The position numbers and the translations under genes were made by a program. A stretch of 64,000 nucleotides of DNA. Source: a virus. Positions 14,674 to 63,722 of the stretch are shown here, piece after piece. Every line of letters starts with the position of its first letter. The stretch's first letter is position 1. Below the pieces are notes generated by a model, which worked only from the letters and a program-made list of their open reading frames with translations, was not told the DNA's origin and searched no databases. The stretch lies in the UHGV virus genome UHGV-0073881. One strand, written 5' to 3'.

Positions 14674-15531
14674 ATGTTACAAAAAATTGACAACATCTAT
14701 GAAAAGACGTTGGACGAGAGAACTGTAACACAATTCAAAGACAAGTTTATTTACACAAGTCTATTGAAATCTATCACAGATGAGTTACAATTGATTGAGG
14801 ATATTAGTTTTCAGTTATACACTGAACGTAATATTCGTACAGGTGTAGGCCAGCAATTAGATAACATTGGGGCTTTGATTAAAGTCCCTAGACCTATTGG
14901 TGCTACAGATGAAGCTTACAGAGCTATCCTATATATCCAAATCTTTCTAAGACGTTCTGACACAACTCCAACGTTTCTTCAAAGAGCTATTATGACTCTT
15001 TACAATGCTACGTTCAGTCAAATCTTTGAGCATATTACTCCTATGACTGGCGGTATTGTTATAAGAGTTAATACCAGAAACAACGTTGTAGATACAGCAT
15101 ACACACTTTCAAAGATTGCTGCAACAACTATTGGTTCAGCAGTTATCTTGAGAGATGTGACTTTGAATGGTACTGCATGGACACCTGTAGAGGTTGCTGA
15201 CTCAGCTTTAGCAATCACTGATGACAAGAATAGCTGGTTCGTTACAGATAACAACAAAGGTCTTGTAACAAACAACACAGGTGGCTCTCTTGAGGCAAAC
15301 TTACTAGGAAGTTTAGCAGATGCTGGTGTAAAGGATGGCTACATGAGGGTTGATAAAACTGGTGGGAGTACCAGTAAAGACTACTTCAAAGTCTCTAAGA
15401 CAGCAAACGGTAATGACTATTTCATTGCTGGTAAAGAAACAGTCGCAGGTGGTGATTACGGTGTAATGGCTGAGGTTGCACAAATCATCAAAGGCAGAAA
15501 AGATAAATCCCAACAAGAAGGAAGTTCATAA
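14674..15531 (+). CDS. baseplate wedge / tail fibre attachment protein (gpI-like)
   Basis: 285-aa ORF following the J-like gene. Confidence 0.4.
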
Positions 15532-48818: not shown

Positions 48819-49130
48819 ATGGAAAAGGTTTATAACACCCGTAAGATTCAGATTGCAATTTTGTGCCAGTTTATGGCTGATAGATATGATGCACATTATT
48901 GTGGTACAGGTTTTTTAGCTTTTGGTGGTGAGTATATCCCATTTAAGAAAGCTGTAAAGATGTACAACGAATCTTCTGATGAACGTAAAGAGTTAGAGCA
49001 GCTTAAGCTAACTTATGACAAGAAATCTAAGAAGATTATCTGCCTTAACAACTATATCAAACCTACTCATCACGTTCTGGATAATATTGGTGAAGAAGGT
49101 TTCTTCAAAGTGTTGAAAATCTCGCAGTAA
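48819..49130 (+). CDS. hypothetical protein
   Basis: 103-aa ORF followed by a terminator. Confidence 0.4.
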   Translation: MEKVYNTRKIQIAILCQFMADRYDAHYCGTGFLAFGGEYIPFKKAVKMYNESSDERKELEQLKLTYDKKSKKIICLNNYIKPTHHVLDNIGEEGFFKVLKISQ

Positions 49131-49143
49131 TAGTTTATGATTA

Positions 49144-49168
49144 GGGAACTGTAAAAGGTTCCCTTTTT
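49144..49168 (+). terminator. rho-independent terminator
   Basis: GGGAAC-tgtaaaa-GGTTCCC followed by TTTTT. Confidence 0.6.
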
Positions 49169-49182
49169 ATTTTGGAGAAAAC

Positions 49183-49698
49183 ATGTATCTTGCAAACCTT
49201 AAGCGTTCTGCTGCAATGTCTGTTCTACGTCTTGACTTTGATGAGCGTCAAGAATTTATAGACTCCCACAAATATGACCCTTCAAACTCTAATCACATGG
49301 TTCTTTGGAATCGTGGAAGCTTCCGTGACAAATCACTCTTCAGATACTACCCTCACTACACCATAGACAACCTATACGAGTACTGCGTTGTCAAGAACAC
49401 TATTGCAGTACTTAACAAACTATGCAGATACTCTGGCAAGCAAGCTTTTACATTAGGCCACCACAAACCCGTCACAAAGGGTGGTGAACATCATTGCTCT
49501 AACTGGTTTATCCAGACTCAGCTTGATAACCAAAAGCAGGGAGAAACTATTCTGGACACCCCTAAGATGAACTATGAAGAACAAAAGGCTTATCTTAAAA
49601 ATAATATGCCACCAATGCTTGACAAGGAATATGCAGTTCTGGCAATATCTCTCTTGTTGAAGTTTGAGACAGTTTATAGGGCAACTTATCATGGCTAA
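49183..49698 (+). CDS. putative HNH-family endonuclease
   Basis: 171 aa; HNH-like segment GHHKPVTKGGEHHCSNWFIQTQLDN. Confidence 0.4.
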   Translation: MYLANLKRSAAMSVLRLDFDERQEFIDSHKYDPSNSNHMVLWNRGSFRDKSLFRYYPHYTIDNLYEYCVVKNTIAVLNKLCRYSGKQAFTLGHHKPVTKGGEHHCSNWFIQTQLDNQKQGETILDTPKMNYEEQKAYLKNNMPPMLDKEYAVLAISLLLKFETVYRATYHG

Positions 49699-49969
49699 AG
49701 AGAAATGGGAAATCTTACCATTAGTTAGTGACGGTGGAAATGGTTGTGAAATGTATATGATACGTGGTCACGTCCCAGAATCACTGGCTCTTGAAATGGT
49801 AGACCATTATACAGATGGTTCTTACAAAGACTTCGGAGAACCAAATGTTAAACAGCAATGGGTTAAACCTGTACCAGATAGTACAGGAAACTGTAGTGTT
49901 CTTTACCACACTGTAGACCCTGCAAAATGTAAATCTGCAATGGCAGTAACCAACGTAACTTTTGATTGA
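49664..49969 (+). CDS. hypothetical protein
   Basis: 101-aa ORF. Confidence 0.4.
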   Translation: MRQFIGQLIMAKEKWEILPLVSDGGNGCEMYMIRGHVPESLALEMVDHYTDGSYKDFGEPNVKQQWVKPVPDSTGNCSVLYHTVDPAKCKSAMAVTNVTFD

Positions 49970-50861
49970 GAGAAATATTATGAAAACCACTATTCGAGTT
50001 CTGCTAAGTTCTAATGCTAAAGGTAGCATTCAAGAAATCTTTAATATTATCCAATTTCCGTCTGGTGAGATTGGTGGCAACTTCTCTGAAGACTTTGTAG
50101 AATTTGCTGAAAGCTTTGCTGGTAAGATTGAAAATGTCATATTTACTGTGCAGGGTTATGATAAAGATACTTTGTTTGCCTTAGCTTTAGCTAAAGAGGC
50201 AGTTGACAAGCTCATCCCTCAAGGTTCAGCTATGAAGACTGTTCTGTTCGGGTTCTTACCAAATGCCCGTTATGACCGTCACATGTTTAAAGGTGATGCA
50301 GCAGCACTCAAAGTGTTTGCCAATCTGGTGAATGCAATGGAATTTGATGCAGTATGCTCTCTGGATGTTCATAGCAATGTCGCAGAAAACCTGTTTAAGT
50401 GCTTCCATTGCATACCTCAGAAAGAGTTTGCGGCACACTTTGCAAGTGACCCACGTATTGATTACTTGGTAGCACCAGATGCAGGTGCAGCTAAGAAGAC
50501 TGAAGAGGCTGCTAAAGAGGTTGAAAAGCCTTATATTACAATGGCTAAGGTTCGTAATCTGAAAACTGGTGAAATTACCGGTATGCGAATCCTTGACGAT
50601 GTAGACTTAACTGGTAAGACTGTCATGATTCTGGATGATATCTGTGATGGTGGTCGAACCTTCGTAGAGGCTGCAAAGTATCTTCGTGAAGCTGGAGCAG
50701 AACGTGTAGAACTCTGTGTCACTCATGGGATTTTCTCTAAAGGTGTTGAAAATCTTCTTGACAATGGTATCGACCATATCTACACTACAAACTCATTAGG
50801 TGATGCTAAAGACCGTGGTCTGAATAAGCACTCACAAGTAACTGTAGCAAACATTGAATAA
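49962..50861 (+). CDS. prs: ribose-phosphate pyrophosphokinase-like protein (PRPP synthetase family)
   Basis: 299 aa; PRPP-binding-loop-like VMILDDICDGGRTF; immediately upstream of the NAMPT-like gene. Confidence 0.7.
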   Translation: MIERNIMKTTIRVLLSSNAKGSIQEIFNIIQFPSGEIGGNFSEDFVEFAESFAGKIENVIFTVQGYDKDTLFALALAKEAVDKLIPQGSAMKTVLFGFLPNARYDRHMFKGDAAALKVFANLVNAMEFDAVCSLDVHSNVAENLFKCFHCIPQKEFAAHFASDPRIDYLVAPDAGAAKKTEEAAKEVEKPYITMAKVRNLKTGEITGMRILDDVDLTGKTVMILDDICDGGRTFVEAAKYLREAGAERVELCVTHGIFSKGVENLLDNGIDHIYTTNSLGDAKDRGLNKHSQVTVANIE

Positions 50862-50871
50862 AAACTTTAAA

Positions 50872-50893
50872 GGGGCTGCATAGCCCCATTTTG
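50872..50893 (+). terminator. stem-loop terminator candidate
   Basis: GGGGCT-gcat-AGCCCC followed by ATTTTG. Confidence 0.45.
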
Positions 50894-50907
50894 AGAGAGA
50901 TAAGAAG

Positions 50908-52725
50908 ATGACTAAATCAATCTACGCAGTTCCAGCAGGTCTTAATGCAGATGCCTACAAAGCAGGTCACATCTACCAGTATCCAAGTGCTACACAGTAT
51001 TTGATGCTGAACCTTACACCTCGTGGTGATAAGTGGTTTAACAGCCCCTTAGAAGTTGACGGTGTAGTTGCTTTTGGTATCCAACGTTTTGTAAAAGACT
51101 ATCTGGTAGACCATTGGAATGCAACGTTCTTTGAGCGTGACAAGAAAGAAGCTGTTGATGAAATCTTAGAAGTTATGAATGGTGTACTTGGTGCAGATGC
51201 TATTGGTCGTGAGCATTGGGAAGAACTCCACGATTTAGGGTACTTACCCGTTGCTGTATATTCTGTTGAAGAAGGTATTGTAGTACCAATGCGTGTGCCA
51301 ATGATTGTCTTCAAAAATACTGTTGAAGGTTTCCATTGGGTAGCTGGTTATCTGGAAGATGCTTTCTCTGCTGAAATTTGGAAAGCTTGTACCATTGCAA
51401 CTATTGCGCTGCACTACAAACGTATCTGTAAGAATTGGGCTGATGTAACCTGTGATAATGACTTCCACTTACCTTGGCAGTGTCATGATTTTGCAATGCG
51501 TGGTATGTCTGGCTTCACAGATGATGCTTTTAATGCTGTAGGTCACTTGACCAGCTTTAAAGGTACTGACAGCTTCCCTGCTGTGTATACTGCTAAACGT
51601 GCTTATGGTCAGTTTATGACAATCAGTGATATTGGCAACTCTGTACCAGCAACTGAACACTCTGTGATGTGTGCAAACATTTCATGGAATAGTACATCTA
51701 AAGAAGTTAGTGATTGGCATCTTATGCAATCTGATAACCTGCTAGATGCAATGCGTTGGCGTGGCGAGGTAGACACTTTCAAACGTCTGTTAGTTGATGT
51801 TTATCCAACTGGTATTGCAAGTGTTGTTTCAGATACTTATAACTTCTGGCGTACTGTTACACAGATTCTACCAGAATTACGCGAAGTCATCCTGAACCGT
51901 GATGGTAAGTTGGTTATCCGTCCAGACTCTGGAGACCCTGTTCACATTGTAACTGGCTACAAAGCTATTGAGTGGGAAACTGCTAAGTCAATGTTCTATA
52001 AGCATATGAAGAGTCTTGCACCTGATAATACTCATCTGCATGATGCAATCTTAAATTGTGAGATGGGTGATATGGGCTTTGGCTTTGCTGCTTGGTTAGT
52101 CTCAGAAGGCTATGAGATGACAGTTGACAAAGAAGACTTTGACCATGCTGATACAGTTAACCTGATTGCCGCTCAAAAGACTGGACAGTTTACTGTTAAG
52201 CGTATGCTGACAGCAGAGATTGACGGAGCTATCAAAACTCTGTACAACATCTTTGGAGGCCACGTAAACAGCAAAGGTTACAAAGTACTGGATGAGCATA
52301 TTGGCTTAATCTACGGAGATTCTATCACTCTTGAACGTGCTGATGAGATTCTTAAGCGTCTTGCTGAGAAAGGTTTTGCAAGCTCTAACGTAGTGTTTGG
52401 CGTAGGTTCTTACACTTATCAGTATCTGACTCGTGATACCTTTGCATTTGCTGTTAAGGCTACACTTGCTCAAATGGATGGTGAAGAAATTATGCTGGCA
52501 AAAGACCCTAAAACTGACAGTGGTCTGAAGAAGTCTGCATTTGGTGGTGTAGTTCCAATGTGGGACGGTGATAAACTGGAAGCTGTAGACGGCTTAGGTT
52601 TTGCAGAGTTTGAAGGTGTCATTGATAACCCTCAGTGCGCACTGAAGCTTGTCTTCTGTGACTCACAACCATATGGTTACGTTAACCTTCGTGATGTACG
52701 AAAAGTTATTGACAACCAGATTTAA
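50908..52725 (+). CDS. nadV: nicotinamide phosphoribosyltransferase-like protein
   Basis: 605 aa; N-terminal DAYKAGHIYQYP and HDFAMRGMSG match NAMPT signatures; longer than typical NAMPT. Confidence 0.75.
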   Translation: MTKSIYAVPAGLNADAYKAGHIYQYPSATQYLMLNLTPRGDKWFNSPLEVDGVVAFGIQRFVKDYLVDHWNATFFERDKKEAVDEILEVMNGVLGADAIGREHWEELHDLGYLPVAVYSVEEGIVVPMRVPMIVFKNTVEGFHWVAGYLEDAFSAEIWKACTIATIALHYKRICKNWADVTCDNDFHLPWQCHDFAMRGMSGFTDDAFNAVGHLTSFKGTDSFPAVYTAKRAYGQFMTISDIGNSVPATEHSVMCANISWNSTSKEVSDWHLMQSDNLLDAMRWRGEVDTFKRLLVDVYPTGIASVVSDTYNFWRTVTQILPELREVILNRDGKLVIRPDSGDPVHIVTGYKAIEWETAKSMFYKHMKSLAPDNTHLHDAILNCEMGDMGFGFAAWLVSEGYEMTVDKEDFDHADTVNLIAAQKTGQFTVKRMLTAEIDGAIKTLYNIFGGHVNSKGYKVLDEHIGLIYGDSITLERADEILKRLAEKGFASSNVVFGVGSYTYQYLTRDTFAFAVKATLAQMDGEEIMLAKDPKTDSGLKKSAFGGVVPMWDGDKLEAVDGLGFAEFEGVIDNPQCALKLVFCDSQPYGYVNLRDVRKVIDNQI

Positions 52726-52740
52726 GTAAGTATTATAAGA

Positions 52741-52761
52741 GGCTCCTACGGGAGCCTTTTT
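52741..52761 (+). terminator. rho-independent terminator
   Basis: GGCTCC-TACG-GGAGCC followed by TTTTT. Confidence 0.65.
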
Positions 52762-52778
52762 AATTTCTGGAGAATGTT

Positions 52779-53000
52779 ATGAGATTTAATACAGATTTAT
52801 TTTACACAGACAGCACTGGATTCTTTGGTTGGTCTCCAGCAGCAGCTTGGCAGTTATGGTTTTCAGAAGATTACAAAGAGGATAGGCAAGTCTTTGTAAT
52901 GGACTACAAGTTCCCTGTAAAACCAACTAAACGTCAGGTTAGAAAGCTTCGTAGAGAGTTTCGTAAAGTTTGCAAAGGGGTTATTAGCTATGAAAATTAA
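52779..53000 (+). CDS. hypothetical protein
   Basis: 73-aa ORF. Confidence 0.4.
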   Translation: MRFNTDLFYTDSTGFFGWSPAAAWQLWFSEDYKEDRQVFVMDYKFPVKPTKRQVRKLRREFRKVCKGVISYEN

Positions 53001-53325
53001 GCAAATGAATATCAACATTATCTTAGAAGAACGCTGGGAAAACATCAAACGTACTGAAGATGGTCACAAGTTCATTACTAAGATTATGCAGGAAGCACAG
53101 ACTCAACTTGCTTCTGAGATTCATACAACGATTACTTTGAAGGTTTACATCAAAGGTCTGCCACAAAACCATCAAGAAGCACTTGACCTGTTCTGTGAGC
53201 ACTTCTACAATCCGAACAAAAGAATCCTTGAAGATAATTTTGCAGTCTCTTCAAGTATCGTTCATGACAGAAGTTTTATCCTGTTTAAAACTGTAGGGGA
53301 AAAGGTATGCAAGGTTATTGGTTAG
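52990..53325 (+). CDS. hypothetical protein
   Basis: 111-aa ORF. Confidence 0.4.
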   Translation: MKIKQMNINIILEERWENIKRTEDGHKFITKIMQEAQTQLASEIHTTITLKVYIKGLPQNHQEALDLFCEHFYNPNKRILEDNFAVSSSIVHDRSFILFKTVGEKVCKVIG

Positions 53326-53486
53326 AGATTGTCTTATCACTTGGTTGTATAGTTGCAATTGCAGTGCTATTATGCAGGTACTTTGCAGAAACAGAACCAT
53401 GTGAAGAGTGTGAAGGGACTGGTGTAGCAGGTATGGGGCATTGCTGCCCCTACTGCAACGGTTCTGGAAAGAAATTTAAAAAATAA
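53307..53486 (+). CDS. small membrane-anchored zinc-ribbon protein
   Basis: 59 codons, below ORF-track cutoff; RBS-like AGGGGAAAAGG; N-terminal TM helix, then CEECEG ... CCPYCNGSG; preferred over antisense ORF 53370..53597. Confidence 0.35.
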   Translation: MQGYWLEIVLSLGCIVAIAVLLCRYFAETEPCEECEGTGVAGMGHCCPYCNGSGKKFKK

Positions 53487-53487
53487 T

Positions 53488-53517
53488 TTGACATGGCTAT
53501 ACAGTTTTCTGTATAGT
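53488..53517 (+). promoter_or_regulatory. sigma70-like promoter (TTGACA-N18-TATAGT) with overlapping palindrome
   Basis: consensus -35; perfect 8-bp inverted repeat CTATACAG-tttt-CTGTATAG spans the spacer and -10; about 35 nt upstream of rIIA. Confidence 0.5.
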
Positions 53518-53550
53518 CTCTTAACCAAAACAACATAGAGGAATATAGTT

Positions 53551-55926
53551 ATGCGCATGGTAAATGACCACGCAGAAGTAATTAAGAGTTCAACCACGTT
53601 AGAGACTGCTCAAGCATCGATTACCATGACTCCTGAGATGTTTAGTCTTCTGAGTTCTGGTGTATACACACATAAGGAACGTGCTGTAATTCGTGAGCTT
53701 TCCTGTAATGCTGTAGATGCTCATGTAGAGGCTGGTAATTCAGATAAACCATTCAGGGTTCACTTACCAACTCGTTTTGAGCCTTACTTTGAAGTACGAG
53801 ATTTTGGAACTGGTTTAACACACGATAAAGTTATGTCTCTGTATCTCAACTACGGAGAATCAACAAAGAATGATTCCAACGATTATATTGGTGCAATGGG
53901 TATCGGTTCAAAGTCACCATTTGCAATTGCTCAATCATTTACTGTGTCAAGCTATGTAGATGGTGTTGTAAACAAATACTCTGTATATCTGGAAAATGGT
54001 ATTCCAAGGGTTACTAAACTGACAACTAACCCTACTGTTGAACCAAACGGTTTAGCTGTACGTGTGGCAGTTTCTGACCAACGTATCAGTAAGTTTGCAG
54101 ATGAAGCAAGTAACGTGTTCTCTTACTTCAAAGTAAAACCAGAGTGTAACATTGAGTATCGTGATATCCTTGCAGAGATGACTTCAATCTCTCGTGAAGC
54201 AAATGTCTACGATGCTATGAAGTACAAAGAGAACTGGCGTTCAAGCAATAACGTAGTTAACTTTAATGTGGTCATGGGTAATATTGCATACCCTGTTGAT
54301 GTACCAACTTTGTTCGAAGGTAACTATGCAGATGCTGTTCCACAGTTCTTCAGGAATGCAGTAGACCTTGTTAACATCTATATGCCAATCGGTTCAGTAG
54401 CTATTGCTGCATCTCGTGAAGCACTACAGATGAATGAGGCAACTAAGCAGAAGATTATTGATGCTGTTAACCGTATCACAGAGACTATTGTTGCAGATGT
54501 TATCAAGGCTGTTGCTGATAAGCCAACTTTGCTTGATGCTGCACAAGCTTACAGTGACATGTTTAAAGATTCTCGTGAAATCTTCATGCACGTTCAAAAC
54601 AAGCTTGAGTGGAATGGTCAGAACTTAGCAGAACTTGACAGAAAACTTAACAGTATTCGTCGTGGTCAGTTAACTGAAGCAGATGGTTCACCGTCATTTA
54701 TTAAGAATGATGCAGGTGATTTCATGCTTGACAAAGATGGTAATAAGATTCCTAACATTGGGAACCTGTATGAACCAGTAGCTTATTATAAGTTTAGTAG
54801 TCTTGAGAACCGTATTCGTGCAACTTCAGCCACTTATACACAAGACTCTTCAATGTTCAATATCTTCAGTGGTATGAGCAAAGATAAGCTGTATAACTAC
54901 ATGTTTATGATTAATGACCGTCGAAACAAAAACGGTACTGAGAAGACAACTGGTAAGAATCAGATTATCCGTGGAGCTTGCCGTGACCGTGAACTTGAAG
55001 AACCTATGTTCCGTCGCTACAATGGTATAGTTTTCATGTTTAGTTCTGAAGAACAATTGGATGACTTTATCAAGCTTCATATGCTGGATAAGAGCTTGCT
55101 TAATATTGTCACAATGTCTTCTAAAGAGCACCACTATGTTAAGCGTACCGTTGTACGTGGTGTTGTTAAGCTGTATAAAGCATTCATGGACAGTACACCA
55201 CGGATTGCCTATACAGAAGTGAAAGAGAACTTTGATGATATTGAAGAACCACAATATTACATCAAGGCACAAAGTGACACTGTTGTGGGTGATATCTTCA
55301 GTTGTTCCCCAGAGACAGCAGCAAAACTGACTGCTCAACTTATTGGACAACCTGTGTATGTCTTCCGTAAGGCTAACTGGAAGAAAGTACCTGAAGATTG
55401 GATTGAAATCAGTGACCAAGTTTTCAAAGATTTTATTGACAGTAGCCATTGGGTTGATTACAATCGCTACCTCACTCACCAGTACATGAGTGGAAGTAAA
55501 GGCACTAGCATTCTTGACTGTAATGTTATCTCAAGAAACTTCACCTTTAAGGATAAGAAGATTTCTAAAGGCTACGTGTACAGCAAAGACTTTGAGAAGG
55601 TAATGTTCCTTGAAGGGAATGAAGAAGCAATTGAGGATGTATTCGGTCGAATCGCCTACACTGCTGCACCTATTGCTTACATGTTTGAGACAAGTGTTTT
55701 AAATGACATTCGTCGTCACACAAAGAGCGGAAGCAAAATTAACAAGAGTCTGAAGAAAGCTAAGAACCATATGGAGAAGAAACTTGAAGTTTATTTCTCT
55801 AAAAGAAAGTCAAAAAACTTCTTGCTTTCACACCTTGATTGGAATAAAGTAAGCCCTGTTGAAGTGAGTAACTTCTTAGGTCACCAAGTCCGGTCAATCC
55901 CTTCAGATACAACTGCTTGGGACTAA
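53551..55926 (+). CDS. rIIA: rIIA-like protein
   Basis: 791 aa; N-terminus with GHKL-ATPase-like motifs (RAVIRELSCNAVDAH, RDFGTGL, SNDYIGAMGIGSKSPF) matching T4 rIIA as recalled; followed by an rIIB-like gene. Confidence 0.7.
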   Translation: MRMVNDHAEVIKSSTTLETAQASITMTPEMFSLLSSGVYTHKERAVIRELSCNAVDAHVEAGNSDKPFRVHLPTRFEPYFEVRDFGTGLTHDKVMSLYLNYGESTKNDSNDYIGAMGIGSKSPFAIAQSFTVSSYVDGVVNKYSVYLENGIPRVTKLTTNPTVEPNGLAVRVAVSDQRISKFADEASNVFSYFKVKPECNIEYRDILAEMTSISREANVYDAMKYKENWRSSNNVVNFNVVMGNIAYPVDVPTLFEGNYADAVPQFFRNAVDLVNIYMPIGSVAIAASREALQMNEATKQKIIDAVNRITETIVADVIKAVADKPTLLDAAQAYSDMFKDSREIFMHVQNKLEWNGQNLAELDRKLNSIRRGQLTEADGSPSFIKNDAGDFMLDKDGNKIPNIGNLYEPVAYYKFSSLENRIRATSATYTQDSSMFNIFSGMSKDKLYNYMFMINDRRNKNGTEKTTGKNQIIRGACRDRELEEPMFRRYNGIVFMFSSEEQLDDFIKLHMLDKSLLNIVTMSSKEHHYVKRTVVRGVVKLYKAFMDSTPRIAYTEVKENFDDIEEPQYYIKAQSDTVVGDIFSCSPETAAKLTAQLIGQPVYVFRKANWKKVPEDWIEISDQVFKDFIDSSHWVDYNRYLTHQYMSGSKGTSILDCNVISRNFTFKDKKISKGYVYSKDFEKVMFLEGNEEAIEDVFGRIAYTAAPIAYMFETSVLNDIRRHTKSGSKINKSLKKAKNHMEKKLEVYFSKRKSKNFLLSHLDWNKVSPVEVSNFLGHQVRSIPSDTTAWD

Positions 55927-58974: not shown

Positions 58975-59859
58975 ATGAAGCCAATGTTCAAATATCTTGG
59001 TGGTAAAACAAGAATACTAAGAGAGTATGAGCGTTTAAATGTTTTTCCAAGCCACTGTAAAAACTTCTATGATTTGTTTTCAGGTGGAGGTTCAGTCGCT
59101 ATTTGGGCTTATAACAGATACCCAGAAGCAAAAATATTTATTAATGAGATAAACAAACACATTATAGGTCTTTACACAACTTTCAGAAATGACTATGAAA
59201 ACTTCATGGAAGAATTTGAGTGCTTGTCAAAGAGGTACTTAGCATTACCTATGCAGGAAGAATATGCTGTGAAAGGTCAGCGACATAAACGTTTACGCTA
59301 TAAAATGTATTACAGTGTAAGGGAGGAACTCCTTTCACTTGGTGAAACAGGTATATATGACTATAGGTACTATGCAAGACAATTTTTCCTTCAAAAACTA
59401 AGTTTTGGTGGTGTATGGCAGACCACTAAAGAAATGAAAGGTCACTACGCAACACCTTGTGGGTATTTGCTGGAAGAAGAGATTTTCTTTACAAAAACTA
59501 AAGAGTCACTATCCGAGTTCTACAGTTTTATCACCGATAAAAGGGTGATACTAAGTAGTGAGCCTTATGATATGGTTGACATAAAACATGGAGAAGGTAC
59601 AGTTATTTACTGTGACCCCCCATATATCAACACCAACCAGAAATATGGTGCAAAGTTTGACATTGAAATGTCTGTAAAACTATGTGAAAATATGATTTCT
59701 TGGGGAGAGTTAGGTTCTAAAGTTTTGATGTCAAACTCTCAGTGGGATGGATGGACAAACTTAATCCCTGAAAATTTTAACTTGACAGAGGTTAGCCATT
59801 CATACACAATACATGCACAGAGAAGCAAGGGTGTTAGCGAAGTAATTATTCATAACTAA
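58975..59859 (+). CDS. dam: DNA N6-adenine methyltransferase (Dam family)
   Basis: 294 aa; SAM-binding FxGxG (FYDLFSGGGS) and catalytic DPPY (VIYCDPPYI). Confidence 0.8.
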   Translation: MKPMFKYLGGKTRILREYERLNVFPSHCKNFYDLFSGGGSVAIWAYNRYPEAKIFINEINKHIIGLYTTFRNDYENFMEEFECLSKRYLALPMQEEYAVKGQRHKRLRYKMYYSVREELLSLGETGIYDYRYYARQFFLQKLSFGGVWQTTKEMKGHYATPCGYLLEEEIFFTKTKESLSEFYSFITDKRVILSSEPYDMVDIKHGEGTVIYCDPPYINTNQKYGAKFDIEMSVKLCENMISWGELGSKVLMSNSQWDGWTNLIPENFNLTEVSHSYTIHAQRSKGVSEVIIHN

Positions 59860-59870
59860 GGTATCAAACC

Positions 59871-60683
59871 ATGACAAACAGTGTAAATGTAGCTCTAAAC
59901 GGTAAGATTGTTAAAATGCAGACTAAGATTATCAGCGTAGAAGACTTTATTAATGAGAAACGCTACAAGGAAAATCCACGTCAACGAAATACATTAAAAC
60001 GACTTAAGAGCAAACACCTTAATGGTGATGTATCACCAGACCAAACAGTTGTCCATATTGCTAAATTCGGTAGTTCACTGTTTATTATTGACGGCCACTC
60101 ACGCAGAGAGGCATGGAAAGTTGGGAACCTTACACGACCAGAAGGATTGATTGCAGTTATATACCATGTAAACTCTATACTAGATGTTACAGATTTGTAC
60201 ACTCACTTTGACTCTGAGTTAGCAAGAGAGAAACCTTCAGAAGTCTATTACGGAAACATGAAGATGATTTCCTTCAATCCAAAGTCAGAGTTGATGAAAG
60301 CATCTTGGGCTACTGCTATTAAGTATGTTGCTGCATACTATGGGGTGCAACAGGTTTCTAACACTGAAACAGTCAATCACCTTGATGACTTTAAAAATGA
60401 GATGGAGCAAATTGACTCTCTTGAAGTACAGCTCAAAGGTGTAGTAAACGCAAAACGTAAGTATTCCTCTGGTATTCGTGCAGCAATGCTAATTACATTA
60501 CGGCTATATGGTGATGCTGCATTCTCCTTCTGGGAGGACTATAATGACTACTGCGAAGGTATGTCTAACAAATATGTTACAGAGGCATACCAACTAGCAT
60601 TGCAAGCTGGTCGTGGAGCACAGGCTGACAAGCTATTGATGAATCAAGTAATTTCACTTGTCAACTACTTCAGCCAAGAGTAG
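59871..60683 (+). CDS. ParB-like nuclease-domain protein
   Basis: 270 aa; segment FIIDGHSRREAWKVG matches the ParB/Srx N-terminal box (hydrophobic-x-DG-x-x-RR-x-A); directly downstream of dam. Confidence 0.45.
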   Translation: MTNSVNVALNGKIVKMQTKIISVEDFINEKRYKENPRQRNTLKRLKSKHLNGDVSPDQTVVHIAKFGSSLFIIDGHSRREAWKVGNLTRPEGLIAVIYHVNSILDVTDLYTHFDSELAREKPSEVYYGNMKMISFNPKSELMKASWATAIKYVAAYYGVQQVSNTETVNHLDDFKNEMEQIDSLEVQLKGVVNAKRKYSSGIRAAMLITLRLYGDAAFSFWEDYNDYCEGMSNKYVTEAYQLALQAGRGAQADKLLMNQVISLVNYFSQE

Positions 60684-62930: not shown

Positions 62931-63722
62931 ATGGGTATTGTAAAAATTATCAAAGGGGATATCTTTGAAGCTTTTGACAATCAGAAGTTTGATATTATTG
63001 GTCACGGTTGCAACTGCATGAATCTTATGGGTGCAGGGATTGCAGCAACAATTGCAAAACGTTACCCAAAAGCTTATGAGACTGACCAAGAAGTCTACAA
63101 CCTGTTTGGTAAAGACCACAAACCAGTAGCTTTAATGCTTGGAAATCTTAGTGTAGCGCGTTTTAAGCAGGGTCGTATTGCTAACCTATACACTCAGTTA
63201 GTTACTGGTAAAGATGCCCGTTACAATGCTTTAGAGGCTGCTTTAGAGCGACTAAACAACTACTGCAAAGTCAATCAGCTTAAGAAGGTTGGCTTACCAA
63301 TGATAGGTGCAGGGATTGGTGGTCTTGATGGTATGGCTGTGCTATCTATCATTAACCAGACCATGAAGGATGTTGATGTTTACATGTACATCTATGAAGA
63401 TAAGATGTTCAAGGAACTGACTAATCCTAAGTCTGGTTGGGAGAATCACAGTGAACCACAATTCTTCGATGGTGTTGCAAAGGTTGAAGAAGATGTAGTT
63501 ACCCTGTGGGTGAAGCGTAAAGGGAAGGTACATAAAAGTAACCCTCCGGTTGAGAAGTATTCTCTAAGTAACGCTCTAGTTACCCACCCGTTGGCAGGGC
63601 ATTGTATGAGAGGTGTAACATTTGGTGATGATGCTAATGTGTATATCCTTGCAAGCAACGACAAAGATGCTGAGGAAGCACTTTCCTGTGAAGTGATTAA
63701 GTTTGTAGAAGCACGTAACTAG
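62931..63722 (+). CDS. macro-domain-like protein (ADP-ribose binding/processing)
   Basis: 263 aa; N-terminal KGDIFEA ... FDIIGHGCNCMNLMGAGIAATIAKRYP and later VGLPMIGAGIGGLD resemble the two glycine-rich loops of macro domains. Confidence 0.45.
   Translation: MGIVKIIKGDIFEAFDNQKFDIIGHGCNCMNLMGAGIAATIAKRYPKAYETDQEVYNLFGKDHKPVALMLGNLSVARFKQGRIANLYTQLVTGKDARYNALEAALERLNNYCKVNQLKKVGLPMIGAGIGGLDGMAVLSIINQTMKDVDVYMYIYEDKMFKELTNPKSGWENHSEPQFFDGVAKVEEDVVTLWVKRKGKVHKSNPPVEKYSLSNALVTHPLAGHCMRGVTFGDDANVYILASNDKDAEEALSCEVIKFVEARN

Follow-up and report, generated by a model that had tools for sequence, protein, structure and literature searches.

Two neighboring genes of a phage genome raise the question of how their products would make NAD+. 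One encodes a protein of the PRPP-synthetase (Prs) family and the next a protein of the NAMPT (Nampt) family. An initial annotation of the window (the whole stretch of 64,000 nt analyzed here, ∼64 of ∼88 kb of the genome) offered two readings of the pair without choosing between them: a PRPP supplier plus NadV, or NAD+ reconstitution pathway 1 (NARP1), pairing ADP-ribose pyrophosphate synthetase (Adps) with nicotinamide ADP-ribose transferase (Namat). Our analysis strongly supports the latter and disfavors the former. We judge it highly probable that the pair is a NARP1 operon, carried by a Felix O1-like phage (Ounavirinae/Mooglevirus); it is a close copy of the NARP1 already described, hence not a new system. 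The genes are as follows:

49980..50861, (+) strand: adps, putative ADP-ribose pyrophosphate synthetase of the Prs family, 293 aa, 82% identity to Bas63_0079
50908..52725, (+) strand: namat, putative nicotinamide ADP-ribose transferase of the Nampt family, 605 aa, 76% identity to Bas63_0080

Both ORFs lie where a PRPS-like gene and a 605-aa NAMPT-family gene had been placed side by side, and their profile matches are far beyond chance. ORF 49962–50861 (+) matched Pribosyltran and Pribosyl_synth (E = 2e-11 and 9e-11) and PHROG 619 'ribose-phosphate pyrophosphokinase' (E = 3e-97). ORF 50908–52725 (+) matched NAPRTase (E = 1e-31), PHROG 448 (E = 3e-196) and NCBIfam NF006629 (461 bits, cut-off 405). 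Names of this kind, carried by the Pfam, PHROG and NCBIfam matches and by the GenBank annotations of all relatives, speak for classical salvage, in which a true PRPP synthetase feeds a NadV/Nampt enzyme and the resulting NMN is converted to NAD+ by host NadR/PncC-dependent routes. Yet we find that reading scarcely credible, given the properties of both proteins and the published behavior of their orthologues.

The locus has a studied counterpart in Bas63 (Escherichia phage JohannRWettstein), whose genes 79–80 are the operon of the NARP1 discovery (Osterman et al., bioRxiv 10.1101/2024.02.11.579819). The gene order of the window phage (nrdD ... nrdG, five small ORFs, adps–namat, three small ORFs, rIIA) is identical in Bas63. 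A Namat homologue no more than ten genes from adps is the operational definition of NARP1 (Osterman et al.); here the two are same-strand neighbors separated by 46 nt. The region matched 253 Ounavirinae records, with 89% DNA identity to Silverhawkium (a Shigella phage, Mooglevirus), and the window phage is nearer to Mooglevirus than to Felixounavirus. In the supplementary tables of Osterman et al., the orthologues of Bas63 and of the closest named phages (Silverhawkium, Moogle, Mijalis and Felix O1) are already entered as Adps/Namat-associated. PHROG 12872, which matches Adps/Namat, and a fused entry from Shigella phage Ag3 in those tables were considered as a natural fusion that would speak for a functional link. 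The Ag3 sequence leaps from the Adps PRPP loop into mid-Namat and looks like a deletion or assembly artefact, and was left out of the evidence.

For adps, the most likely start is the ATG at 49980, because the Bas63, Silverhawkium and Moogle homologues begin MKT, gene calling done independently on a metagenome contig whose Namat gene is identical gives 293 aa, and a Shine–Dalgarno-like GAGAG motif lies just 5' of the ATG. The TTG at 49962 is probably unused, as it coincides in part with the upstream ORF's stop codon. With this start, the protein aligns gap-free with Bas63_0079 over 293 aa. The PRPP-synthetase-family loop quoted in the initial annotation is indeed present:

50622..50663, (+) strand: PRPP-type ribose-phosphate binding loop VMILDDICDGGRTF of Adps, aa 215–228, read from the translation

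Loop residues D219, D220, G225 and T227 are invariant among the window Adps, Bas63 Adps, E. coli Prs and the Adps of Bacillus phage SPbetaL1. The catalytic lysine is also retained. K190 (293-aa numbering, motif AKVRN) corresponds to SPbetaL1 K162, whose substitution in a K162A mutant abolishes activity, and this lysine is aligned as well in the HMMER match to PDB 4twb.

Tree position and model scores separate the protein from canonical Prs, contrary to what classical salvage predicts. In a small neighbor-joining (distance-method) tree of 21 sequences, four canonical Prs split from 17 phage Adps in 200/200 bootstraps, the window protein falling among the Adps. All but one of the 17 are Namat-associated, and SPbetaL1, Noelle, Bas63, Felix O1 and the window protein are among them; the clade holds both the validated SPbetaL1 Adps and an orthologue of the Adps of Gary NARP1-AP. 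On models TIGR01251 and NF002320, the window Adps scored 132 and 101 bits, about a third of the E. coli Prs values (423 and 533) or less, and known Adps proteins scored 106 and 74, 139 and 101, and 99 and 81. The canonical class I Prs cut-off on NF002320 is 297, and the window protein fell far under the cut-off of every Prs equivalog model (e.g. 109 versus 296 on NF002095). The only Prs model that it passed was the broad TIGR01251 (cut-off 113). A PDB sequence search found no Adps crystal structure, and a literature search found no published motif for specificity toward ADP-ribose (ADPR) versus ribose-5-phosphate. The predicted identity of the first enzyme as Adps is therefore based on orthology, tree position and gene linkage.

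The second protein carries marks of Namat specificity. It is 93% identical to its Silverhawkium counterpart. Among solved structures, a sequence search ranked SPbetaL1 Namat (9w5w/9w5x) best (E = 1e-124), followed by H. ducreyi NadV (1e-99), Xanthomonas Nampt (2e-50) and human NAMPT (1e-38). The AF2 model (pLDDT 92.4) had Namat crystal structure 9w5x as its top Foldseek match (TM 0.95 on target). Catalytic-core residues D15, Y17, F195, R198, D221, H251, R338 and D340 are all identical to their SPbetaL1 equivalents (D13, Y15, F189, R192, D215, H245, R306 and D308). Two further elements form the adenine clamp:

51025..51036, (+) strand: Namat selectivity-clamp loop (SCL), G40-D41-K42-W43, aligned with SPbetaL1 T38-S39-R40-V41
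52405..52437, (+) strand: Namat selectivity-clamp helix (SCH) motif GSYTYQYLTRD, aa 500–510, matching the published Namat signature

In Namats, the third SCL residue is Arg, Lys or Tyr and supplies or precedes the residue that stacks on adenine; the window protein has K42-W43 here. In Bas63 Namat, which has the same K-W loop, the fourth residue does the stacking (Lan et al., PMC12774641). The SCH aromatics are missing in Xanthomonas Nampt (GGALLQKVDRD), in H. ducreyi NadV (GAQTYQRNTRD) and in Nmnat-associated phage Nampt (GGGMATADMDRD). The clamp of the window Namat, absent from Nampt, thus argues against classical salvage. Structure prediction and active-site comparison with bona fide PRPS/NAMPT versus Adps/Namat had been proposed as a check; the sequence comparison shows the clamp and catalytic residues in place. 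The accompanying view that the two chemistries could not be told apart by sequence no longer holds: Bas63 orthology, the Namat clamp signature and placement on the Adps side separate them.

The NAMPT-like protein had also been described as ∼100 aa longer than usual, which holds. The excess is explained by two insertions that the 491-aa SPbetaL1 Namat lacks:

51679..51765, (+) strand: Namat insertion 1, aa 258–286, directly after the catalytic-His strand
51961..52224, (+) strand: Namat insertion 2, aa 352–439, a folded alpha/beta subdomain

Insertion 1 occurs neither in SPbetaL1 Namat nor in 496-aa bacterial homologues, and measures 18–33 aa in Ounavirinae-type Namats. In the predicted structure, one of the two insertions folds confidently, as a small subdomain with no recognisable relative. 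Both are lineage-specific and also found in Bas63; the extra length is therefore no sign of novelty at the pathway level. Barrel topology suggests that both arise from catalytic-face loops. There they might form an extra lid or an Adps docking surface that protects labile ADPR-PP, an idea that we hold with little confidence.

What would such a pair do during infection? A host NADase of the SIR2, TIR or SEFIR type would split NAD+ into ADP-ribose and nicotinamide. Adps would then spend ATP to add a pyrophosphate to the ribose of ADP-ribose, forming ADPR-PP, and Namat would swap the pyrophosphate for nicotinamide to yield NAD+ directly, bypassing NMN and host NadR/PncC. We infer this chemistry and the anti-defence phenotype of the window pair from published work on Bas63 and SPbetaL1. 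Deletion of Bas63 genes 79–80 sensitised the phage to SIR2-HerA, ADPR-PP was detected solely with wild-type phage plus the defence system, and the effect survived in a double mutant of pncC and nadR (Osterman et al., bioRxiv 10.1101/2024.02.11.579819). The in vitro evidence comes from SPbetaL1 proteins, which are ∼30% (Adps) and 46% (Namat) identical to those of the window. SPbetaL1 Adps pyrophosphorylated ADPR and gave no product with the Prs substrate (ribose-5-phosphate according to the legend), and its Namat preferred ADPR-PP over PRPP, making only NAD+ when offered both donors. Rescue from SIR2-HerA, type I Thoeris, DSR1/2 and SEFIR has been published for the operon of Bas63, FADO or SPbetaL1.

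These results weigh against classical salvage: the Bas63 orthologues make ADPR-PP in vivo and function in the pncC nadR mutant. Nor did we find a CTP_transf_like (Nmnat) or Nudix domain in the 27 non-structural ORFs at 14.7–44.6 kb or in the scanned ORFs at 47–64 kb, a set that takes in part of the small ORFs of the window. On the other side, Namat enzymes keep PRPP-dependent NMN synthesis in vitro, that of SPbetaL1 retaining about half of the PRPP-to-NMN activity of human NAMPT, and by analogy the window Namat could have some of this classical activity as well.

NARP1 chemistry could instead serve mainly to supply NAD+ for phage metabolism in any host. The operon does sit among nucleotide-metabolism genes (nrdAB, nrdDG, thymidylate synthase, DHFR and dNMP kinase), and a related pathway, NARP2, elevates NAD+ even without a defence system. 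But in Bas63 infection, ADPR-PP appeared only with SIR2-HerA, because free ADPR is the limiting substrate. Moreover, the DNA ligase of the window phage is of the ATP-dependent type, and the scanned part of the window showed no phage enzyme that consumes NAD+. We therefore regard a housekeeping role as very unlikely, and favor NARP1 acting against NAD+-depleting defences.

Transcription signals give hints on how the two genes are expressed. Each had been credited with its own terminator, but only namat has a strong one:

50872..50892, (+) strand: intergenic hairpin GGGGCU-GCAU-AGCCCC followed by AUUUU (AUUUUG), a 6-bp GC stem between adps and namat
52737..52760, (+) strand: intrinsic terminator ending the operon, a 10-bp stem (5 GC pairs) plus T-run

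The terminator downstream of namat is strong (–17.5 kcal/mol, z = –3.2). After adps there is just a weak conserved hairpin (MFE –12.8 kcal/mol, z = –2.8) that the terminator scan did not call. Bas63 and Silverhawkium retain its stem and U-run unchanged, with a variable loop. It could be a weak terminator, an attenuator or an mRNA-stabilising element, and might adjust the relative expression of adps and namat. Going by these signals, adps and namat are probably co-transcribed, possibly with two small upstream ORFs, between terminators at 49143–49164 and 52737–52760. Promoter-like sites in 49000–53700 showed no excess (14, versus 11.4 ± 3.1 in shuffled sequence).

Some NARP1 operons include a Macro-domain phosphatase, Adpp (the NARP1-AP variant). 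Domain and PHROG profile searches found no Macro domain in the ORFs flanking the pair, and an in-operon Macro, RyR-domain or phosphatase partner was rejected: the six flanking small ORFs match only DUF or unknown PHROG families. In NARP1-AP the Macro gene is at most two genes away. The only one in the window lies ∼10 kb downstream of the pair:

62931..63722, (+) strand: candidate accessory gene for a Macro-domain protein of the Adpp/T4 Tk.4 family, 263 aa, with a 105-aa C-terminal extension

This Poa1p-like family member matched Pfam Macro (E = 5e-7), PHROG 335 'phosphatase' (E = 5e-99) and, in PDB, the ADPR-1''-phosphate phosphatase Poa1p (E = 5e-5), and it is conserved as Bas63_0095. With an HMM built from 13 Adpp proteins of NARP1 operons, it was the sole match in the six-frame window (115 bits, E = 5e-37). 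T4 Tk.4 scored about equally (105 bits), and we know of no NARP1 in T4; membership in the Adpp family is therefore no proof of a NARP1 link. Macro homologues are also more widespread than Adps (2796 versus 1305 phage records), and a specific link of the distal protein to NARP1 is tentative. Felix O1-like phages may nonetheless run a dispersed NARP1-AP, in which the Macro protein would supply Adps with ADPR made from ADPR-1''-phosphate, which RES NADases of the aRES type produce. We think this rather improbable. Such an arrangement would escape the published survey, in which Ounavirinae are absent from Table S1, because that survey spanned only two genes on each side of NARP1 (bioRxiv 10.64898/2026.01.28.702374).

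The finding itself brings no new biology. Its use lies in annotation: where a phage sequence from a metagenome bears only the label 'PRPP synthetase plus nicotinamide phosphoribosyltransferase', sequence now allows the pair to be recognized as NARP1. The combination of orthology, the Adps/Prs split and the clamp motif of Namat suffices, so such genes should be read as anti-defence rather than housekeeping salvage. The prediction is that the window phage, like Bas63, withstands SIR2-, TIR- and SEFIR-based NAD+ depletion, not necessarily aRES, which bears on the choice of Felix O1-like phages for therapy or biocontrol.

Among known systems, bacterial salvage by Prs plus NadV/Nampt (E. coli Prs, H. 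ducreyi NadV 9KE8, Xanthomonas Nampt 7YQO) shares superfamilies, fold and core catalytic residues with the window pair. It differs in the scores of canonical Prs (423–533 bits, versus 101–132 for the window protein), in the separate clade of those enzymes and in NadV/Nampt proteins without the aromatic clamp; moreover, a bacterial prs adjoining a Namat homologue is very rare (Osterman et al.). NARP2 of Vibrio phage KVP40 (Nampt plus Nmnat) likewise sets a Nampt-family enzyme against NAD+-depleting defences. Yet it makes NMN from PRPP, requires Nmnat and has no Adps partner. Nmnat-associated Nampts carry GGG(M/L)AT.D.DRD, whereas the window protein has the aromatic Namat motif and linkage to Adps, and so falls outside the PRPP-preferring NARP2 clade. 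No phage in the work of Osterman et al. had NARP1 together with NARP2.

NARP1-AP of Vibrio phage Gary and its relative Noelle comprises Adps, the Adpp Macro phosphatase and Namat (Osterman et al., bioRxiv 10.64898/2026.01.28.702374). Its Adps and Namat are homologous to those of the window, where a Macro protein of that family is encoded as well, and Noelle Namat too has an insertion at the insertion-2 site. In Gary and Noelle, however, the Macro gene lies between adps and namat, whereas that of the window is well over ten genes downstream, and its product is only 28% identical, with the additional C-terminal region.

NARP1 of SPbetaL1 (Namat structures 9W5X/9W5W; Lan et al., PMC12774641) is likewise a two-gene Adps–Namat operon, with the catalytic Lys of Adps, the catalytic Arg of Namat (R306, R338 in the window) and the SCH motif type in common. 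Besides the lower identity and the shorter Namat with neither insertion, its clamp loop employs Arg40 directly, in place of Lys42-Trp43, and its genes abut, stop and start sharing a base, where the window has the 46-nt gap with a hairpin. As for Bas63, its insertion 1 has 18 aa rather than 29 (11 aa shorter), and its operon has been studied experimentally. The two phages share the subfamily Ounavirinae, the nrdG-to-rIIA position, the high identity of both proteins, a long Namat with both insertions, the K-W clamp loop, the motif GSYTYQY(L/M)TRD and the intergenic hairpin.

The adjacent Prs-like and Nampt-like ORFs (adps and namat) seen at 49.9–52.8 kb in the initial annotation are real, given their matches in Pfam, PHROG and NCBIfam. 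With the hairpins beside them, they are arranged as follows:

49962/49980–50861, + strand: first ORF, adps, with Pfam phosphoribosyltransferase and PRPP-synthetase-associated domains (PHROG 619, E 3e-97)
50872–50892, + strand: intergenic hairpin between adps and namat, a 6-bp GC stem followed by AUUUU
50908–52725, + strand: second ORF, namat, 605 aa, NAPRTase/NAMPT_N (PHROG 448, E 3e-196; NCBIfam NF006629, above cut-off)
52737–52760, + strand: strong intrinsic terminator directly after namat

The translated first ORF contains the loop VMILDDICDGGRTF. Its start is most likely the ATG at 49980, which would give a product of 293 aa, because homologues begin with MKT and because 293 aa is also the length called independently on a metagenome contig whose Namat gene is identical. 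This ATG is further preferred since the TTG at 49962 overlaps the stop codon of the upstream ORF. Each gene had been credited with its own terminator; this holds for namat, but no strong intrinsic terminator follows adps. The intergenic hairpin was left uncalled by the terminator scan. Compared with Shigella phage Silverhawkium and Escherichia phage JohannRWettstein (Bas63), its loop is variable and its stem invariant. The hairpin may set the Adps:Namat ratio, acting as a weak terminator, as an attenuator or through mRNA stability.

A terminator-like hairpin at 49143–49164 and the strong terminator at 52737–52760 enclose four genes, adps and namat being the last. The first two are:

49183–49698, + strand: upstream ORF, 171 aa, PHROG 3500, faint HNH-like match
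49691–49969, + strand: upstream ORF, 92 aa, PHROG 4726

Both keep their position in Bas63, as genes 0077 and 0078, which the published Bas63 deletion left out (bioRxiv 10.1101/2024.02.11.579819).

The pair region shares 89% DNA identity with Silverhawkium (Mooglevirus, Ounavirinae) and is matched by 253 Felix O1-like phage records. The gene order nrdD, nrdG, small ORFs, pair, small ORFs, rIIA is common to the window, Silverhawkium and Bas63, a BASEL phage. An ENA metagenome scaffold encodes a Namat 100% identical to the window protein. NARP1, the phage pathway in which Adps converts ADPR to ADPR-pyrophosphate (ADPR-PP) and Namat joins this to nicotinamide to form NAD+, was first found as Bas63 genes 79–80 (Osterman et al., bioRxiv 10.1101/2024.02.11.579819). 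Window Adps is 82% identical to Bas63_0079, with no gaps, and window Namat is 76% identical to Bas63_0080. Loss of genes 79–80 makes Bas63 sensitive to SIR2-HerA, ADPR-PP is seen only when wild-type Bas63 and the defence system are both present, and rescue needs neither host pncC nor host nadR (bioRxiv 10.1101/2024.02.11.579819). These genetic and metabolomic data contradict classical salvage, in which Prs and NadV would feed host NadR/PncC, even though that is what every database name for the pair means. SPbetaL1 enzymology, from a Bacillus phage, contradicts it as well, and we consider it very improbable. A housekeeping boost of NAD+ is also unlikely to be the primary role of the pair, because ADPR-PP arises only once a defence releases ADPR.

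The window proteins themselves speak against classical salvage, by clamp motif, catalytic lysine, Prs score and tree position. It had been held that sequence cannot distinguish the two chemistries. For the second enzyme this is incorrect: the selectivity clamp does separate Namat from PRPP-using enzymes. In the solved structure of SPbetaL1 Namat, the clamp was defined as a helix motif, GS-X-phi-X-phi-X-phi-TRD, plus a loop with Arg, Lys or Tyr as third residue; the aromatic residues at helix-motif positions 3 and 7 make stacking contacts with the adenine of ADPR-PP/NAD+ (Lan et al., PMC12774641). Window Namat has GSYTYQYLTRD at aa 500–510 and the loop G-D-K42-W43, arranged as in Bas63, and its core residues F195, R198, D221, H251, R338 and D340 are all conserved. 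By comparison, the bona fide PRPP-using enzymes of Xanthomonas (Nampt) and H. ducreyi (NadV) have GGALLQKVDRD and GAQTYQRNTRD, respectively, at the helix. Nmnat-associated (NARP2-type) phage Nampts also differ from the window protein here, with GGG(M/L)AT.D.DRD. The closest solved relative by sequence is Namat 9W5W/9W5X (E 1e-124), with HdNadV, Xanthomonas and human NAMPT behind, and 9W5X is also the structure that best fits the AlphaFold2 model (pLDDT 92.4; TM 0.95 on target). Residual conversion of PRPP to NMN has been reported for Namat in vitro (PMC12774641). Such a side activity is likely here too, yet would not turn the pair into a salvage pathway.

For Adps, searches of PDB sequences and the literature found no specificity motif or structure, so we used three indirect tests. 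First, K162 of SPbetaL1 Adps, mutation of which inactivates the enzyme, corresponds to conserved K190. Second, on the Prs models TIGR01251/NF002320, window Adps scores 132/101 bits, versus 106/74, 139/101 and 99/81 for the known Adps of SPbetaL1, Bas63 and Vibrio phage Noelle, and 423/533 for E. coli Prs. Third, in a small neighbour-joining tree (21 sequences, including four canonical Prs from three phyla), the canonical Prs split from all phage Adps in 200/200 bootstraps. This split is clear. The window protein fell on the Adps side, between the branch with the validated SPbetaL1 enzyme and that with the orthologue of the enzyme validated from Vibrio phage Gary.

Namat had been described as ∼100 aa longer than typical, and relative to the 491-aa SPbetaL1 protein it indeed carries two insertions:

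Namat aa 258–286: insertion 1, directly after the catalytic-histidine strand
Namat aa 352–439: insertion 2, directly after the RPDSGDP strand

Both, at 18–33 and 56–94 aa, are common to the 560–610-aa Namats of Ounavirinae and related Yersinia, Pectobacterium and Salmonella phages. The second site is also occupied in Noelle Namat, by a shorter insertion, and 496-aa bacterial homologues have neither insertion. Homologues of this length, carrying the Namat motif in full (GSFTYQYNTRD), are encoded by chromosomes of Klebsiella, Phytobacter, Kosakonia, Kluyvera and related Enterobacteriaceae, which also encode 286-aa Adps-like proteins. They may constitute NARP1 modules of bacteria, similar to the one reported in Paenibacillus (Lan et al., PMC12774641).

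Small ORFs of unknown function flank the pair (DUF7390, DUF7279, PHROGs 3500, 4726, 2375, 4262 and 3931). Domain and PHROG searches found no Macro, RyR or phosphatase domain among them, and the pair therefore represents NARP1 in its two-gene form. A Macro gene does occur ∼10 kb downstream, with a counterpart in Bas63 (gene 0095):

62931–63722, + strand: protein of 263 aa, Macro domain at the N terminus (PHROG 335 'phosphatase')

Its 105-aa C-terminal extension has no match. Some NARP1 operons include a gene for Adpp, a Macro-domain ADPR-1''-phosphate phosphatase, and with it the pathway overcomes aRES as well. The aRES defence is an NADase of the RES-domain type that yields ADPR-1''-phosphate, a compound which NARP1 by itself is unable to use (bioRxiv 10.64898/2026.01.28.702374). 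An HMM built from 13 Adpp sequences of that preprint (Osterman et al. 2026) had this protein as its sole match in the six-frame window (115 bits, E 5e-37). The protein also matches yeast Poa1p, and its place in the Adpp/Poa1p/T4 Tk.4 family is clear. A functional tie to NARP1 is not, because the HMM scores T4 Tk.4 at 105 bits and phage records with this Macro family are roughly twice as numerous as those with Adps. We know of no NARP1 in T4. As a lead, the gene might encode a distal ADPR-1''-phosphate phosphatase feeding NARP1, i.e. a dispersed NARP1-AP (NARP1 plus Adpp). The Adpp survey covered two genes either side of NARP1, with Ounavirinae absent from its table (bioRxiv 10.64898/2026.01.28.702374), and would therefore have missed it.

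Two further genes lie upstream of the Macro gene:

58975–59859, + strand: Dam-like D12-class N6-adenine DNA methyltransferase
59871–60683, + strand: 270-aa protein of unknown function, PHROG 2615, following the methyltransferase

They are missing from Bas63 at the corresponding position and fully covered in 14 of 192 matching Ounavirinae-like records, and so form a variable accessory module, possibly anti-restriction. Elsewhere, one of 27 ORFs scanned at 14674–44619 encodes a deoxynucleotide monophosphate kinase (PF21448). A phage dNMP kinase triggers Kongming (KomABC), an NAD+-depleting defence neutralised by NARP1 (Lan et al., PMC12774641); this phage may thus carry both trigger and antidote.

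Orthologues from Silverhawkium, Moogle, Mijalis, Felix O1 and Bas63 appear as Namat-associated Adps or Adps-associated Namat in the Osterman supplementary tables (bioRxiv 10.1101/2024.02.11.579819), so the system is already catalogued for this lineage. Supplementary Table 1 there also holds a single ORF of Shigella phage Ag3 (FJ373894_00125) whose sequence passes from the PRPP loop of Adps directly to mid-Namat; its appearance is that of an internal deletion or assembly artefact, not of a natural fusion. PHROG 12872, matched by both window proteins, probably derives from Ag3-like entries. The pair is thus a known anti-defence system, correctly detected, in a phage closely related to Bas63, where it was first described; what remains new are the two insertions in Namat and the distal gene of the Adpp family.
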